Source: Candidatus Omnitrophota bacterium (GTDB lineage Bacteria > Omnitrophota > Gorgyraeia > Gygaellales > Profunditerraquicolaceae). From it: a stretch of DNA of 64,000 bases. Under the pieces are notes generated by a model. The model was given only the letters and a program-made list of their open reading frames with translations. It made no database searches and had not been told where the DNA came from. The position numbers and the translations under genes were made by a program. The DNA lies in contig JACQXK010000032.1 in NCBI GenBank assembly GCA_016208765.1, positions 118,385 through 182,384 of the forward strand. Direction: 5' to 3'. Positions within the stretch are counted from its first letter, which is position 1; each line of letters starts with the position of its first letter. Positions 3,443 to 28,149 of the stretch are shown here, in pieces.

Positions 3443-3937
3443 TTATCTTTTCTTCGGCGGCTGAACATCCTCGCGAGACCACTTGATGCTATGTACCGCC
3501 AGATGCTCACCGACAAAATAAATATTCTTTTCTAAATCTTCGCTTACTTCTTTAACCTCTATTGCCTTCTCCGGGCAGCTAACTGCGCATTTGGGCAATT
3601 CTTTTCCAGCGCCAAGGCAATAATCGCACTTAGAATCAAGATACGGAATAAAATCCTGAAAGATAATCCCAAAGGGACAGGCAACTGTGCAGGATTTGCA
3701 ACTCGTGCAGCGCATTTTATAACGTTTTAGATGCCCGTCTGTTGCGCGCTCCAAAGCCTTATGATAGCAGGCATTGACGCAAGGAGCGTCTTCACAATGC
3801 CGGCAGATTGTGGCAAATGTTGCATACTCCCGCAAAGAAGAAATCCCATTATTCTGCGGGTGATAAAAATAATCACAGGCAACTTTACATTCTTCACAAC
3901 TATTGCATTTGTCTAAATCTATGAACAATCTTTTCAT
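3443..3937 (-). CDS. poly-ferredoxin (multiple 4Fe-4S clusters), electron-transfer subunit
   Basis: 164 aa with about 16 Cys arranged as repeated CxxCxxCxxxC(P) motifs (CNSCEECKVAC, CRHCEDAPCVNAC, CTSCKSCTVACP, CDYC...CAVSCP). Confidence 0.8.
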   Translation of the reverse strand: MKRLFIDLDKCNSCEECKVACDYFYHPQNNGISSLREYATFATICRHCEDAPCVNACYHKALERATDGHLKRYKMRCTSCKSCTVACPFGIIFQDFIPYLDSKCDYCLGAGKELPKCAVSCPEKAIEVKEVSEDLEKNIYFVGEHLAVHSIKWSREDVQPPKKR

Positions 3938-3974
3938 TTTTCGTTTATCGCTTTGGCTTTAAGTTTTTCGCTTT

Positions 3975-10841: not shown

Positions 10842-10845
10842 AAGC

Positions 10846-11136
10846 CTATTTCACCCTGTCAATTTTCTTTAAATTAAAATACCCTAACACCTTAACTTTT
10901 GCCGAGGACTTCTCTACCAGCCAATCATGGTATTTATTCATAAAACTGTCATGCTCGGCTTTACTTTTCCATTCATAAACAGAGGCATATTGATTCTTGA
11001 AATCATATCTCTTCACGGTATGATACGAAATAAAACCTTTCGCCTTTCGGGCATAACCTGCCCACATCTTGCTGTCCTTGCGGTATTTTCCAACTTCTTT
11101 AGGCTGGATCTCAAATAAAGCTACATGTATAAACAT
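10846..11136 (-). CDS. small alpha+beta-barrel protein, possibly ABM/antibiotic-biosynthesis-monooxygenase-like
   Basis: 96 aa with no strong motif. The fold guess rests on size and composition only. Confidence 0.3.
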   Translation of the reverse strand: MFIHVALFEIQPKEVGKYRKDSKMWAGYARKAKGFISYHTVKRYDFKNQYASVYEWKSKAEHDSFMNKYHDWLVEKSSAKVKVLGYFNLKKIDRVK

Positions 11137-11163
11137 AGATGGGCCCCTTCTTTTTTTTAACTT

Positions 11164-18180: not shown

Positions 18181-18252
18181 GTATTTTGTTAGGATTTTCA
18201 AAATGCTGCACAATTGATTTTATGTATTATACTGACAGCACAAGATAATTTA

Positions 18253-18433
18253 GCAATAAAAGTTTCTCTTCGCACACGAGATAATTTGGCGTCTTCTGCG
18301 GTTTATGACTCGCTTTCGTAACGGCTTACGCAAAAAACTCTATACTCTCGCTCGTCATAAATCCTTGAAGACTATAAATAATAACGCGTTGCCAAAAAAT
18401 CTCTGATTGTGTGCTAACAGAAACTTTTATTGC
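18253..18433. repeat. about 181-bp MITE-like element with about 40-bp imperfect terminal inverted repeats (copy A)
   Basis: The left end GCAATAAAAGTTTCTCTTCGCACACGAGAT pairs with the rev-comp of the right end (GCAATAAAAGTTTCTGTTAGCACACAATCAGAGAT). The internal part has its own 8+ bp inverted repeat (TTTATGAC...GTCATAAA). The rev-comp of the whole element aligns at about 85% identity with 27076..27254. Confidence 0.7.
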
Positions 18434-18459
18434 TTTGTGCTTTGGATTTTATTTTGCGG

Positions 18460-18614
18460 GTGACAAGGCATGTTTCGAGCAGCATGTTAGAAAGCTCTTG
18501 CGGGCATGGTTCGCCTGCTATCACATAGTTGGCGAGAGCAAGAGCTTTCTACCGAGCGAAGATTTTCCACGCTGGGGAAAATCAAGCGGTGCTGCGAGAA
18601 ATATGCCTTGGCAC
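18460..18614. other. GC-rich 155-bp structured element (24-bp inverted-repeat arms enclosing two hairpins); candidate ncRNA or second MITE-like element
   Basis: GTGACAAGGCATGTTTCGAGCAGC (18460..18483) pairs with GCTGCGAGAAATATGCCTTGGCAC (18591..18614). Inside are an 11-bp perfect hairpin (AAAGCTCTTGC...GCAAGAGCTTT, 18491..18548) and an 8-bp hairpin (GATTTTCC...GGAAAATC). GC content is much higher than the flanks. Confidence 0.5.
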
Positions 18615-18656
18615 CTGAATACTTAAAATACAAGACTTGGCTAAATTTATAATTTT

Positions 18657-23850: not shown

Positions 23851-23932
23851 GACGTCATTGCGAGCCCGAAGGGCGAAGCAATCTCTGTTTTAGGATTGCT
23901 TCGTCGCGCTTCGCGCTCCTCGCAATGACGAT
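23851..23932. repeat. 82-bp composite palindromic (REP-like) element overlapping the 3' end of the 668-aa CDS
   Basis: GTCATTGCGAG-(X)-GAAGCAATC / loop TCTGTTTTAG / GATTGCTTC-(X')-CTCGCAATGAC. The X and X' bulges each form a small GC hairpin with GAA/TTC loops (GCCC-gaa-GGGC and GCGC-ttc-GCGC). The stop codon of the upstream gene (23892..23890) lies in the central loop. Confidence 0.6.
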
Positions 23933-25896
23933 TTCTTAATTTTCAATAATTCACAATACAAATTATCTATTCTATTCACCATTTCTTTAGCGCTGAAATT
24001 CTCATTCATTATTTTCCTGGCGTTTTCTCCGAATAACTTTGCCTTATCTGGATAAGACAGTAACTGAATAATTCCCTTTGCTAATTCACTACTACTTGCA
24101 GGTTCAACTAAGACACCACTCTCGCCATCTTTCACTAATTCCGGAATACCGCTTACCTTTGTGGCAACGCTTGGCTTTCCCATAACCCCTGCTTCAACAA
24201 GCACCCTGCCCATACCTTCGTTAAGGGAACAAAGCACAAAAATGTCCATTATTGAAATCATGCGCGCCACATCCTGCCTGATACCGGAAAAAATTACTTT
24301 TTGCGATATTCCCAGCTCTTCAACCCTGTTTTGCAGAAATTTACGCTGACTGCCGTCGCCAACCAAGAGAAAATGTGAATTTGGAAATTTCTCCAAGACT
24401 TGCGGCATGGCCTCTACAAAGAAACTTATTCCTTTAATCGGCTCAATTCTGGCAACTGTACCAATAACTTTTCTATCTAAAGGAATCCCTAATTCACCCT
24501 TCGTCTTTTTATTATCAAAAGAACCATTAAAATCCTCTACCTTGACCCCGCTTGGGATAGTGATAAATTTATCCGCTGTGGCAATCTTAAGTTTTAGATG
24601 TTCATTCTTGCAATTATCCGTCAGGGTAATTATCTTATCACAAAAACAGGAGAAAATCATCTCTAAAAACCTGTATAGCATGCTTTCAAAACGGCCAAAA
24701 TAACTATGAAAAACATGCCCATGCGGCGTGTGCACCACTACCTGCACTCCTGCAAGCTTAGCCGCAAGCCTACCCACAATCCCAGCCTTTGAGGTATGAG
24801 TATGCACAATATCAAAACGATATCTTTTGATTAGAAAATATAATTTAACCAAACTAATCAAATCTTTTACAGGATTAACTTGGCGAACTAACTCTGGAAT
24901 TACCGCTAAATCAATATTTTGCCTACGCACAACTGATTCAATCTCGCCTTCTGGCCCTGATGTTGGGCCGCTTGCCAACATCACCTGATAACCTTTTTCT
25001 CTTAAACCCAAAACTGTTAAAAGAGTATTCTCCTGCGCACCGCCCTTGATTAAACGAGTAATAATATGCAGCACCCTTATTGGACGATTACTATCTTTGA
25101 GTCTTTCCTTAATCATCTTGGACAATAACTTTCTCTGTATCTTAGTTGGCCAGCTAAATTTAGTAGCCAGGCCTAAATCTTGCTTAACCGGCATTGCCCG
25201 GTTATTTTCAATCTGAGTAACTACTTCCACCACCATCTTGCTGCCCAAGGCTAAACCCCGCAGATAAAGCGTTTTTTCATTATCAAAAGGCCAAATTGTA
25301 ATTTTCTTTTGAATCAGGATATCTCCCCTATCTAACTCTTCATTTACAAAATGCACAGTTACGCCGGTTTCATTTTCTTTATTAAATAATGCCCAAAAGT
25401 TAGAATCTAATCCTGCATATTTAGGTAAAAGCGATCCGTGCAGGTTAAGGCAACCGGATTTTGGGATTTGGAAAATATTTTTCTTAATTAAACGCGTATT
25501 GGTGAGAACAACTAAATCCGGATTAAACTTGCGAATTATATTCTCGCTATCCACGCCATTATGATCCTTAACCAAGAAAAATGGAATTTTATAATCTAAT
25601 ACCAGCTCCTCTATTGAAAGATAATGTTTGCTGCGAAAAATATTGCTTCCAAATATTTTTCGTAAAATATAATGCAATTTAATATTAATAAATTCAAGTA
25701 GCCTGTCCTTTGTAAACGAAAAACCATGTTTCTTAAAAGAATCCGACAGTAAAGAAAGGTTGCTGCCATTCTTCTTTAATAACTGTCCCCGCTCCTCGGC
25801 AACAATAGCCACTAAATTTTTCCCAGCATCAAGCAAGCATTTAGCAATTAATGCGCCTGACGGCCTACCAGTCCTGGTTAAAAATACTATTCTCAT
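23890..25896 (-). CDS. bifunctional formyltransferase-domain / GT4 glycosyltransferase fusion protein
   Basis: The N-terminal roughly 250 aa has a formyl-transferase fold (Fmt/ArnA-N/PurN type) with SGCLNLHGSLLPKYAG (HxSLLPxxxG catalytic motif). The C-terminal roughly 380 aa is a GT-B/GT4 domain (GMGRVLVEAGVMGKPSVATKVSGIPELV, EX7E region). The last 11 codons are encoded by the palindromic element. Confidence 0.75.
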   Translation of the reverse strand: MRIVFLTRTGRPSGALIAKCLLDAGKNLVAIVAEERGQLLKKNGSNLSLLSDSFKKHGFSFTKDRLLEFINIKLHYILRKIFGSNIFRSKHYLSIEELVLDYKIPFFLVKDHNGVDSENIIRKFNPDLVVLTNTRLIKKNIFQIPKSGCLNLHGSLLPKYAGLDSNFWALFNKENETGVTVHFVNEELDRGDILIQKKITIWPFDNEKTLYLRGLALGSKMVVEVVTQIENNRAMPVKQDLGLATKFSWPTKIQRKLLSKMIKERLKDSNRPIRVLHIITRLIKGGAQENTLLTVLGLREKGYQVMLASGPTSGPEGEIESVVRRQNIDLAVIPELVRQVNPVKDLISLVKLYFLIKRYRFDIVHTHTSKAGIVGRLAAKLAGVQVVVHTPHGHVFHSYFGRFESMLYRFLEMIFSCFCDKIITLTDNCKNEHLKLKIATADKFITIPSGVKVEDFNGSFDNKKTKGELGIPLDRKVIGTVARIEPIKGISFFVEAMPQVLEKFPNSHFLLVGDGSQRKFLQNRVEELGISQKVIFSGIRQDVARMISIMDIFVLCSLNEGMGRVLVEAGVMGKPSVATKVSGIPELVKDGESGVLVEPASSSELAKGIIQLLSYPDKAKLFGENARKIMNENFSAKEMVNRIDNLYCELLKIKKSSLRGARSATKQS

Positions 25897-27062
25897 CTAA
25901 CTCTTTCGTCATTGCGAACCTTATTTAGCTTTTCTCTAAATATCTCAACCGCCCTCTGCCAATTCAATTCTTCAACTACCCTTTTTCTTCCGTTCTCGCC
26001 TAATCTCTTAGCAAGCTCTCTATCCAAAAGCAGTTTTAAAATTGCTTGGGTAACATCGTCTTTGCTAAAAGGGTCCACCAATAAACCGGTTTTACCATCT
26101 TCTATCGCTTCATTTACTCCTCCGGATTTACCACCGACAACCGGCTTTTCACAGGCATTTGCCTCCAAATAAACAATTCCAAAACCCTCAATATCTCCTC
26201 TCTCTTCTAGAGTGCGGCTGGGCATAACAAAAATATCACAAAGATTATAGAATTTAAGCAACTCTTCATCCGGCACTCTTCCGGCAAAACGAAGATATCT
26301 TTCTACGCCCAACACATTAGTAAGGTTCTCTAAATTCTGACGAAACGATCCTCCACCAACCAAAACATAGACAACATCAGGATGAGCTTTAATTATTTCA
26401 GGCATAGAGCGAATAACCATATCAAAACCTTTTCTTTCCACCAGTCTGCCCACAGAAAGAATTACTTTTTTACCTAAAAGATTATACTTAGACCTAAAAT
26501 CATCTGTTACTTTTAAAGGATAATATTTTTGATGGTCGGTTCCCGGTTTAATTAAGATGATCTTTTCTTTAATAACGCCGAATTTTATCAGGCGCTCTTT
26601 TACAAACTCTGTGATTGCTGCCACAAACAGAGCATTATTGTAGATTTTTAAATATAATTTGTGCATAAACTTATTTCTCTCAAATTTACCAAATTCATAT
26701 CCATAAGCCCACATAGCATACTTAAAACCTAATATTTTAGAAAATAAATACGCGATAACTCCGCCATAAGCAATATTCATTGGGATTACAATCTTAATCC
26801 GGTATCTTAAAATTACCCACGGCATTACAAAAAGAATAGGGATAAGCCTCAAATAACCTAATTCATACCAGGGAGTGCGAATTACTTTAAATTTCTGCAA
26901 GCTATCATACTCCTTAGCACCTTTTGCCTGGGGGCCGATAACAATAATTTGCTCTCCGGCACCAGACAAGCGCGAAGCTAATTCATGCGCCACTGTGCTA
27001 ACGCCATCAGTGTGCGGGGGAAAATCTACCGAAACAATAAGAATCTTGGTTTTTATTTGCAT
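25893..27062 (-). CDS. GT4-family glycosyltransferase
   Basis: C-terminal EGFGIVYLEANACEKPVVGGKSGGVNEAIEDGKTGLLVDP (EX7E GT4 motif). 389 aa. Confidence 0.8.
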   Translation of the reverse strand: MQIKTKILIVSVDFPPHTDGVSTVAHELASRLSGAGEQIIVIGPQAKGAKEYDSLQKFKVIRTPWYELGYLRLIPILFVMPWVILRYRIKIVIPMNIAYGGVIAYLFSKILGFKYAMWAYGYEFGKFERNKFMHKLYLKIYNNALFVAAITEFVKERLIKFGVIKEKIILIKPGTDHQKYYPLKVTDDFRSKYNLLGKKVILSVGRLVERKGFDMVIRSMPEIIKAHPDVVYVLVGGGSFRQNLENLTNVLGVERYLRFAGRVPDEELLKFYNLCDIFVMPSRTLEERGDIEGFGIVYLEANACEKPVVGGKSGGVNEAIEDGKTGLLVDPFSKDDVTQAILKLLLDRELAKRLGENGRKRVVEELNWQRAVEIFREKLNKVRNDERVR

Positions 27063-27075
27063 AATATACTATTTG

Positions 27076-27254
27076 GCAATAAAGGTTTCTGTGAGCGCAC
27101 AATTAGAGATTTTTTGGCATAGCATTCTTATTTACAGTCTTCAAGGCTTTATGACGAGCGAGAGTACACCTAAATGCGTAAGCCGTTACGAAAGCGAGTC
27201 ATAAACCGCAGAAGACGGCAAAAAATCTCGTGCGCGAACAGAAACTTTTGTTGC
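27076..27254. repeat. about 179-bp MITE-like element (copy B), in the opposite orientation to the copy at 18253..18433
   Basis: Matches the rev-comp of 18253..18433 block by block, including the shared core AAAGCGAGTCATAAACCGCAGAAGACG (27 of 27) and TIR-specific substitutions. It lies in the 214-bp intergenic region upstream of the GT4 gene at 25893..27062. Confidence 0.7.
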
Positions 27255-27276
27255 TGAATAATGATCCAGCAACAAA

Positions 27277-28149
27277 TTATACTTTCATCAACCTATTAAA
27301 AACCCGTAATATTTTGTTTAAAAAAATACAGTTCTTGATTTCTAACAAATCTAGCTCCCCATTAAGTTTGGCCAGAAATGTAAACATATTATCCGAAGAC
27401 TCTATCCCTATGCGCCTTAACTCAAACAAATCAGTGCTAACATCATTTACCCCGTTCATCGCAGTAAACCCAAAAATATAACCTGCCTCCTCGGCAACCT
27501 TTTTTACATCCTGGTTAAAATCAATCACTAAACCAAACGGATACGAAATCATATCAATCTTACTTCCAAGCTCTTTTTCTATAATTTCCTTTGAATCTGT
27601 AATTTCCTTCTTAAAATCTGTGACTTTACCCAAATTAGCATGATTAATTGTATGCGACCCAAAATCAATCCCATACCTTGACATTTCTCTTACTTGATCC
27701 CAGGCAAGGAAATGATTATAAATAGGATTATCGTTAATATCATGCGGCAATATTTTCTCTGTACCGATGTATCCTGCGGTTAAAAATATTGTTGCCGGGA
27801 CTCCTAAATTTCTTAAGATAGGATACGCATTAGTGTAGTTATCCGAGTAGCCGTCATCAAAAGTAACTGCCACTGCCTTTTTAGGCAAGCATCTTTTTTG
27901 TTTTAACAAACCACAGGCATCTTTTAATGAAAGTAAAGAATAATTCTTTGCCAAAAACTGCATTTGTTTCCTGAATTTATTTATCTTTACATTTACCTCG
28001 TGCTTTCTAAAATCGCCTACACTGTGATACCTTATAATTACCAGCTTATTCTTTCTACGGCCAAGCCAGAGAGGTAAAAAAATACAATAACCAATAACAG
28101 CAAGAAAGATCAAGATTAACTTTTTAATAAAAATCTTTAAAGCAATCAT
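27277..28149 (-). CDS. polysaccharide deacetylase (NodB homology; ArnD-like deformylase/deacetylase candidate)
   Basis: N-terminal TM helix, then a VAVTFDDGYSDNY...H motif set (the TFDDG NodB signature). 290 aa. Confidence 0.8.
   Translation of the reverse strand: MIALKIFIKKLILIFLAVIGYCIFLPLWLGRRKNKLVIIRYHSVGDFRKHEVNVKINKFRKQMQFLAKNYSLLSLKDACGLLKQKRCLPKKAVAVTFDDGYSDNYTNAYPILRNLGVPATIFLTAGYIGTEKILPHDINDNPIYNHFLAWDQVREMSRYGIDFGSHTINHANLGKVTDFKKEITDSKEIIEKELGSKIDMISYPFGLVIDFNQDVKKVAEEAGYIFGFTAMNGVNDVSTDLFELRRIGIESSDNMFTFLAKLNGELDLLEIKNCIFLNKILRVFNRLMKV

Follow-up and report, generated by a model that had tools for sequence, protein, structure and literature searches.

Cultivated Proteobacteria, Firmicutes, and cyanobacteria are well known to carry small palindromic repeats. 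One of them, YPAL, is an enterobacterial MITE, a small, non-coding, imperfect palindrome that folds as one long hairpin. Inverted repeats also characterize the invertons of Bacteroides capsular polysaccharide loci, in which they surround a short segment upstream of glycan genes and recur at several loci. The properties of ERIC-type MITEs, which act on mRNA stability when co-transcribed, have been reviewed (PMC3184786), as have those of the Correia elements (CREE) of Neisseria, which are 100-160 bp in length and have TIRs of ~26 bp, outward promoters, an IHF site, and a TA duplication (PMC3184786). REPINs are inverted REP doublets that form hairpins, with singlets representing defunct remnants (PMC3116915), and REP units carry a conserved GTAG or CGTC tag at their 5' end (PMC3733652).

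The element described in the present study lies in a 64,000-nt stretch of Candidatus Omnitrophota DNA, which was analysed as a whole and is referred to below as the window. Its size, terminal inverted repeats (TIRs), and non-coding nature fit the definition of a bacterial MITE (PMC3184786). Similar to the ERIC/IRU and YPAL MITEs (~127-168 bp), it is a small, non-coding, imperfect palindrome forming one hairpin, is intergenic, often lies at gene 3' ends or inside operons in either orientation, and shows filled and empty orthologous sites; however, it has no sequence similarity to these elements, belongs to Omnitrophota, shows no recognizable TA or other flanking duplication, and has an apparently low copy number. 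It shares with Correia elements the character of a MITE with TIRs next to genes and a co-transcribed hairpin, but has no predicted promoter-like site and no recognizable TA duplication. The parallels with the REPIN/RAYT system include a hairpin doublet as the unit, single-arm remnants, no recognizable target duplication, vertical persistence in a narrow lineage, and the maintenance of pairing (PMC3116915), whereas the element is approximately twice as long as a REPIN, has no REP-like core of 20-40 bp with a GTAG/CGTC tag and no identified RAYT, and was seen in few copies. Unlike the Bacteroides invertons, it has no predicted promoter and no recombinase among the window ORFs scanned, its interior is palindromic, it is also present at non-glycan sites, and it is found in one orientation in the contig from the organism's sample.

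Copies of the element in the window

Positions 27076-27254 (+) hold an inverted second copy (copy 2) of the element at 18253-18433 (-, copy 1), the two being ~90% identical. A repeat search of the window paired 27076-27166 with 18343-18433 (91 nt, 89%) and 27175-27262 with 18245-18332 (88 nt, 91%), both inverted, and similarity in the pairwise alignment began at GCAATAAAGG (27076) and stopped at TTGTTGC (27254), the flanks of the two copies being unrelated. The family profile matched the window at these two places only (E 2e-60 for copy 2 and 7.5e-62 for copy 1). The TIR GCAMYAAARGTTTCTNTKMGCRCAC had four matches in the window, which were the four copy ends, with 0.00 expected from shuffles, and a core 24-mer occurred twice against 0.00 expected. 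The profile, the alignment, and the TIR counts all agree with the preliminary description, which had recognized a second copy of a TIR repeat at this position. The "+" orientation of the element is defined by copy 2 and is antisense to the surrounding operon, which is transcribed on the - strand.

Copy 1 has a structured non-coding unit (18452-18635) on one side and the promoter of an Rrf2 gene on the other, and there are orthologous copies in L007/L025, L021, and L024. The two window copies are inverted repeats 8.6 kb apart that bracket the 3' end of a surface-glycan cluster, and the block between them runs from the GT4 gene through epimerase, MazG, and DUF1805 genes to the structured unit. 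Homologous recombination between the copies would invert this block; no evidence of such an inversion was found. We also considered a composite transposon formed by the two inverted copies around the 8.6 kb, which was rejected because the gene order persists without the element or with a remnant: the order GT4, formyltransferase-GT4, PIG-L, WbqC, and DegT is also present in L013 and L015, which have no element, and in L012, which has a remnant only.

Full copies are 177-181 bp in length (n = 7) and hold no conserved ORF. The only small ORF, of 17 codons in copy 2, is frame-shifted in copy 1 by a 2-nt indel, and the coding potential of the element was rejected on this ground. A known RNA family was rejected as well: Rfam 15 gave no match in the window at gathering scores, and at E<=10 both copies gave only chance-level miRNA and snoRNA matches (E 1.6-10). 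No tRNA or tmRNA was found in the window. The integron attC consensus is RYYYAAC/GTTRRRY, and an attC site was rejected since the ends of the element are unlike it and there is neither an array nor an integrase.

Predicted fold and compensated changes

The whole element is one long imperfect palindrome with TIRs of ~40 bp, 56-58 paired positions, and a small apical hairpin. In the predicted fold of copy 2, the left arm (27076-27118, +) consists of an outer helix (27076-27100) and a second helix (27106-27118) separated by a 5-nt bulge (AATTA), and is followed by an 18-nt unpaired stretch (27119-27136) that is present in the left arm only. The right arm (27217-27254, +) pairs through 27217-27229 with 27106-27118 and through 27230-27254 with 27076-27100. 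The region in between (27137-27216, +) is predicted to form the inner stems, in which 27137-27142 pairs with 27211-27216 and 27145-27159 with 27194-27207, and an apical region that includes CGTAA-GCCG-TTACG (27177-27190), a mini-hairpin invariant among the copies. Both termini read GCAAYAAARGTTTCT..GCRCAC..GAGATTTT, and the outer helix has 23-25 pairs.

Folded as RNA, the "+" strand of copy 2 reached -76.7 kcal/mol (z -8.9) and the complement strand -58.6 kcal/mol (z -5.4). In each of the five copies tested, one strand had the more stable fold, with a margin of 11-21 kcal/mol; this asymmetry is due to G.U-compatible positions, of which 10 cells were on one strand versus 1 on the other among seven copies. 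In the alignment of five full copies, 97.2% of the cells were paired, and both sides had changed in 8 of the 58 pairs, against 2.0 +/- 1.2 double-change pairs in shuffles, none of 500 of which reached 8. Controls in which the partner was slid by 1-3 columns yielded 0-1 double-change pairs, and the result was the same with seven copies.

Two subfamilies were distinguished among the seven copies by five inner-stem pairs, each of which is fully compensated. Subfamily A (GTCTTC..TTATGACGAGCG) comprises the window copies, L001, and L002, and subfamily B (GTGTGC..TTACGGCGAACG) comprises L006, L021, and L024 together with the partial copies L007, L008, and L011. Private compensated pairs were also present, from A-U to G-C in copy 2 and from U-A to C-G in L001. 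At the Rrf2 site, the centre of the orthologous copy is of the A type in the window and of the B type in L024 and L021, and the right-arm signature CCAAATTATCTCG is common to the window Rrf2 copy, L002, and L024/L007. Since the right arm is shared despite the different centres, the copies are mosaics, which points to gene conversion between copies as a probable source. The compensated arm changes, taken together with this exchange, indicate that the hairpin is maintained; judging from the alignment, its upkeep is attributable to selection on master copies, to exchange between copies, or to both.

The deacetylase-GT4 junction

The gene upstream of copy 2 in the operon encodes a polysaccharide deacetylase (27277-28149, -; Pfam Polysacc_deac_1), and those downstream encode a GT4 glycosyltransferase (25893-27062, -; Pfam GT4) and a protein with Formyl_trans_N and GT4 domains (23890-25896, -; Pfam). 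These Pfam domains confirm the neighbours named in the preliminary description, and all three genes are on the - strand. The gap is likewise as described there: it measures 214 bp from the GT4 start (27062) to the deacetylase stop (27277), and the element occupies 179 bp of it. The right end of the element is 22 nt from the deacetylase stop codon, and its left end 13 nt from the GT4 ATG.

The genes on either side of the gap overlap their own neighbours by 4-10 nt. All 58 non-overlapping ORFs of at least 100 aa in the window are encoded by the - strand, with a negative GC skew throughout positions 1-64000 (-0.12 to -0.29). The surface-glycan cluster extends from ~19.3 kb to the end of the window with 40 consecutive genes that overlap or are closely spaced, and its contents include GT2 and GT4 transferases, methyltransferases, Wzy-like proteins, MurJ, Wzm/Wzt, PMT_2, asparagine synthase, FemAB, and radical SAM enzymes. 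The 214-bp gap is the largest within this cluster. Elsewhere in the window, two other long non-coding gaps were observed, at 3517-3974 (458 bp, between the genes for NADH dehydrogenase subunit H and an FAD/NAD oxidoreductase) and at 10842-11163 (322 bp, between those for MnmA and a TonB-dependent receptor); both lie between - strand genes, and neither had an Rfam match at gathering scores.

The comparison with relatives showed three states of the junction. In L012 (GCA_020063045.1), the GT4 protein of which is 87% identical, and in L010, the gene order is the same as in the window, and ~60-75 nt between the deacetylase stop and the GT4 ATG hold a single arm of ~40-55 nt. Similar to the proximal arm of the window copy, this arm ends 9-16 nt before the ATG, the corresponding distance in the window being 13 nt. 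The element is missing beside more distant GT4 orthologues (66 and 65% identity): there is no space (gap of 0) between the deacetylase stop and the GT4 start in L013 and L014, and a GDSL gene lies between the two genes in L015 and L016. In some organisms, the deacetylase and GT4 are fused in proteins of 639-680 aa (P0023 and P0024, homologues of the product of 25893-27062), which supports functional coupling of the two genes. The absence of a gap in relatives lacking the element and the short gap with a remnant indicate that the 214-bp gap exists only through insertion, and the orthologue comparison together with the fusions indicates that the ancestral state was therefore a tight operon junction. 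The gap is accordingly not an ancestral promoter region.

The single arm upstream of GT4 was of the right-arm type in L012 (3978-4022) and of the left-arm type in L010 (910-949). The region is orthologous in both to window positions 27063-27120, and the two share the junction TAATTTGTATAAG after the deacetylase stop. This difference in arm type suggests gene conversion from another copy or a flip that may have preceded the deletion.

A terminator-like 13-bp hairpin with the tail AGTTTCTGTT was observed at 27247-27276 (-), immediately after the deacetylase stop (-15.3 kcal/mol, z -5.7; followed by AGUUUCUGUU). The outermost 8-10 nt at the right end of the element supply its 3' half; the arrangement resembles a short inverted copy of this end (TTTGTTGC) placed 15 nt beyond it. 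Other copies have no hairpin of this type, and the stretch is missing from L010 and L012.

The preliminary description had placed a promoter for the downstream genes at this point and had raised the possibility of phase or expression variation. A sigma-70 scan of 26900-27450 on both strands detected no promoter-like site against 1.2 expected, although canonical promoters exist elsewhere in the lineage, namely, TTGACA-16-TAAACT upstream of Rrf2 and TTGACT-17-TATAAT upstream of rpsO. With this result, the origin of the gap by insertion, and the overlap of the neighbouring genes in an operon, the promoter claim was not upheld. The same was true of phase variation: no simple repeat tract is present, the 59 window ORFs scanned against Pfam include neither an invertase nor a transposase, and a Logan contig from the organism's own sample (L003), which extends from GT4 across the proximal arm and all of the interior, shows a single orientation and ends only where a 43-nt stretch identical to copy 1 ends. 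The proposed comparison of orthologous loci showed that the state of the site differs (full element, single arm, or none), with a single arm kept in the close relatives L010 and L012. This variation between relatives could translate into differences in downstream expression between lineages. Loss of a Shine-Dalgarno sequence was considered as an effect of the insertion and set aside as uninformative, with an SD-like motif being present at only 25 of the 59 window ORF starts; the relatives with a single arm also have no SD-like motif at GT4.

Distribution of the family and traces of mobility

Besides the two window copies, at least 12 full, partial, or single-arm copies were found at other sites in MAGs and metagenomes of related Omnitrophota, and they occur in both orientations. 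Genomes and metagenomes were scanned by exact-pattern searches. The core 24-mer was present in two copies in one GTDB representative genome, the groundwater Candidatus Omnitrophota MAG JACROS01 (L001 and L002), and the TIR pattern was present in five contigs of the JGI metagenome Ga0208371, of which L006 holds a full copy, L007, L008, and L011 end inside a copy, and L010 holds a single arm. Protein-anchored look-ups added L021, L022, and L024. The copy count is 2 per 64 kb in the window and at least 3 in MAG JACROS01 (L001, L002, and L021).

The contexts of these copies are diverse. In MAG JACROS01, L001 lies upstream of rpsO-pnp and L002 beside a thioredoxin-like ORF; L006 is upstream of queH, between this gene and a structured RNA-like unit, L008 is 3' of an hcp-like gene, and L011 is 3' of an ABC ATPase gene. 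Copies upstream of Rrf2 are copy 1 of the window, L007, L021, and L024. With respect to local transcription, some copies lie in one direction and some in the other. Logan contigs assembled for the sample that yielded the organism were 100% identical to the window and stopped inside both copies, as expected of a multi-copy repeat.

The exact core 21-mer had no match in JGI metagenomes or viral contigs, the TIR pattern had none in viral contigs, and blastn of the element against a plasmid collection gave none. A single 25-nt TIR match in L009 (SDBS01003820.1) lies inside a 450-aa ORF; it was treated as a chance match and not as a family member. The literature search returned no paper pairing Omnitrophota with MITEs. 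The family is confined to a narrow group of related Candidatus Omnitrophota genomes.

The rpsO site is filled in L001, in which the element lies between a large ORF and the rpsO promoter, and empty in L017, L020, and L018, in which gaps of 73-79 nt show no trace of it; the promoter-side flanks are identical to those of L001 in L017 and L020 and nearly so in L018. Presence/absence polymorphism at two independent sites, rpsO and GT4, supports mobility. The filled site (L001 4193-4504) has 28 + 34 extra nt beside the element relative to L017 (2428-2500) and L020 (2096-2168), and is by this alignment not a clean cut-and-paste footprint. No consistent direct repeat indicative of a target-site duplication was found at the seven full copies or in the filled/empty rpsO pair, and the flanks of the seven full copies are AT-rich, loosely T-R-A-A-T-W-A-T. 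Outward from the left end, 10 nt (TTTAGMTAAT) were observed to be common to L001, L002, L021, L024, and the L011 solo arm, and absent from both window copies; the mobile unit may be longer in this lineage, or may have spread in a one-sided manner. The scan for an autonomous element with the same TIRs in JGI metagenomes returned only copies, remnants, and the one probable chance match, and the Pfam scan of 59 window ORFs detected no transposase, integrase, or invertase domain.

A structured unit next to the element

Beside copy 1, a structured non-coding unit of ~175 nt was observed at 18452-18635, with the + strand slightly favoured. Further copies lie at L006 778-952, L021 1721-1879, L024 1-152, L002 686-742, and L023 1-98. 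In its predicted structure, GGTGACAAGGCAT...ATGCCTTGGCACC form the closing stem, the apical stem is 14 bp long, and there is one side hairpin. Among only three sequences, 19-20 of the pairs were compensated, and the unit had no Rfam match at three loci. It accompanies the element in different contexts (between DUF1805 and Rrf2, between RuvB and QueH, and next to a Trx-like gene), and at least two are present in MAG JACROS01, with a divergent paralog at L011 2305-2496 between cbiQ and cbiO. It may represent a 6S-like RNA or else another structured repeat that is mobile.

Two arrangements of the unit and the element were observed in addition. At L011 2158-2268, an inverted 47-nt fragment of the structured unit is followed by a solo element arm and then by the 12-nt spacer TTTAGATAATCA, which also joins arm and unit in L002, L021, and L024; this stretch is a rearranged remnant between cbiQ and cbiO. 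At L023 1-272 (Ga0394678_19850), the structured unit lies upstream of Rrf2 in reversed orientation and without the element, and the Rrf2 protein belongs to the same 90%-identity cluster as that of the window (MBI4707523.1). This locus appears to be an inversion or rearrangement breakpoint at the place where the window holds the element.

Discussion

The element at 27076-27254 is probably a mobile palindromic repeat of the MITE type, non-autonomous and non-coding, rather than a promoter. It fits a MITE because of its size, which is within ~100-400 bp, its non-coding nature without a conserved ORF, its TIRs, its dispersed copies, and its filled and empty orthologous sites; a cognate autonomous IS was not found in the JGI TIR scan, the viral contigs, or the window ORFs. 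It represents a new family of a known kind of element (MITE/REPIN-like) in Omnitrophota. As a mobile repeat, it would have inserted into the tight deacetylase-GT4 junction in the common ancestor of the group that includes the window organism, L010, and L012, and a later deletion in L010 and L012 would have left one arm. Movement, present or past, would have depended on a transposase supplied in trans, possibly acting on a single-strand hairpin. In the operon mRNA, the hairpin is expected to be the one formed by the weaker strand, with its end 13 nt before the GT4 AUG, and to be accompanied by the small hairpin after the deacetylase stop; the insertion would at most dampen or uncouple the expression of GT4 and the genes downstream; some polarity or a loss of translational coupling could be the consequence.

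Both the compensated changes, which extend over the whole length, and the 10:1 strand bias in G.U-compatible cells exceed what is predicted for a simple MITE conserved in its TIRs only. The whole-length hairpin kept by compensated changes, the better folding of one strand in five of five copies with the 10:1 bias in G.U cells, the lack of a recognizable target duplication, and the single-arm remnants in L010 and L012 and as the L011 solo arm would all be compatible with a REPIN-like variant of the mobile repeat that differs in mechanism, in which a single-strand DNA hairpin is moved by a single-copy Y1 transposase (RAYT / IS200-IS605-type) and the single arms are decayed remnants. We nevertheless regard this variant as unlikely, considering that arms of ~80 nt and a unit of 181 nt compare with 20-60 bp for REP and ~70-110 bp for REPIN, that the arm ends read GCAAT.../...ATTGC with no GTAG/CGTC tag, and that no RAYT gene was seen in the window or beside the retrieved copies. 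Moreover, a handful of copies was seen instead of hundreds, and the window copies lie on opposite strands of one replichore; in addition, the arms are not themselves palindromic cores of the REP kind. A further reading, to which we give little credence, is that the hairpin itself is the selected unit, vertically persistent and strand-specific (as single-strand DNA or as RNA), similar to REPIN-RAYT. At twice the length of a REPIN and in a phylum from which no such system has been described, this unit would perhaps work with the 175-nt covarying structured unit, and the insertion in the glycan operon would, with an equally small likelihood, be a regulatory hairpin or attenuator and not neutral junk.

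The occurrence of copies in both orientations is difficult to reconcile with a functional structured RNA module selected by the host, such as a terminator, an attenuator, an RNase III target, an mRNA stabilizer, or a multi-copy small RNA, and copy 2 is antisense, with the mRNA corresponding to the weaker strand (-58.6 vs -76.7 kcal/mol). There is no promoter-like site in or beside either window copy from which a full-length element RNA may be transcribed and no Rfam family match, and at the GT4 and rpsO sites, close relatives do without the hairpin and the element, respectively. Such a module is quite improbable in our judgment, despite the strong covariation, the favoured strand, ends that read AAAGG-stem...stem-CTTTT as in a bidirectional terminator, the position of most copies at gene 3' ends or between transcription units, and the terminator-like mini-hairpin after the deacetylase stop. 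An invertible promoter switch, in which a recombinase flips the segment and renders the glycan genes phase-variable, is very improbable indeed. Inverted repeats do flank ~100 bp directly upstream of surface-glycan genes, and the retained arm, left-type in L010 and right-type in L012, allows for an ancient flip; however, neither strand has a promoter-like site, a flip of the palindromic interior would change little, and no recombinase is present among the 59 ORFs scanned in the 64-kb window. The element is also found at the non-glycan sites rpsO, Rrf2, and hcp, L003 reads the interior in one orientation, and relatives lack the site, which is within an operon. On present evidence, the element is of an ordinary kind, neither a promoter nor a demonstrated switch.

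Omnitrophota is a phylum known almost only from metagenomes, and palindromic repeats had not been reported from it according to our literature search. Assembly breaks at such points in these genomes are explained by the family, which also marks hot spots of rearrangement and gene conversion. The GT4 site provides a natural series of no element, a single arm, and a full hairpin 13 nt upstream of the start codon, by which the effect of a hairpin inside an operon may be tested. If the hairpin is under strand-specific selection, REPIN-like biology would extend to a new phylum.
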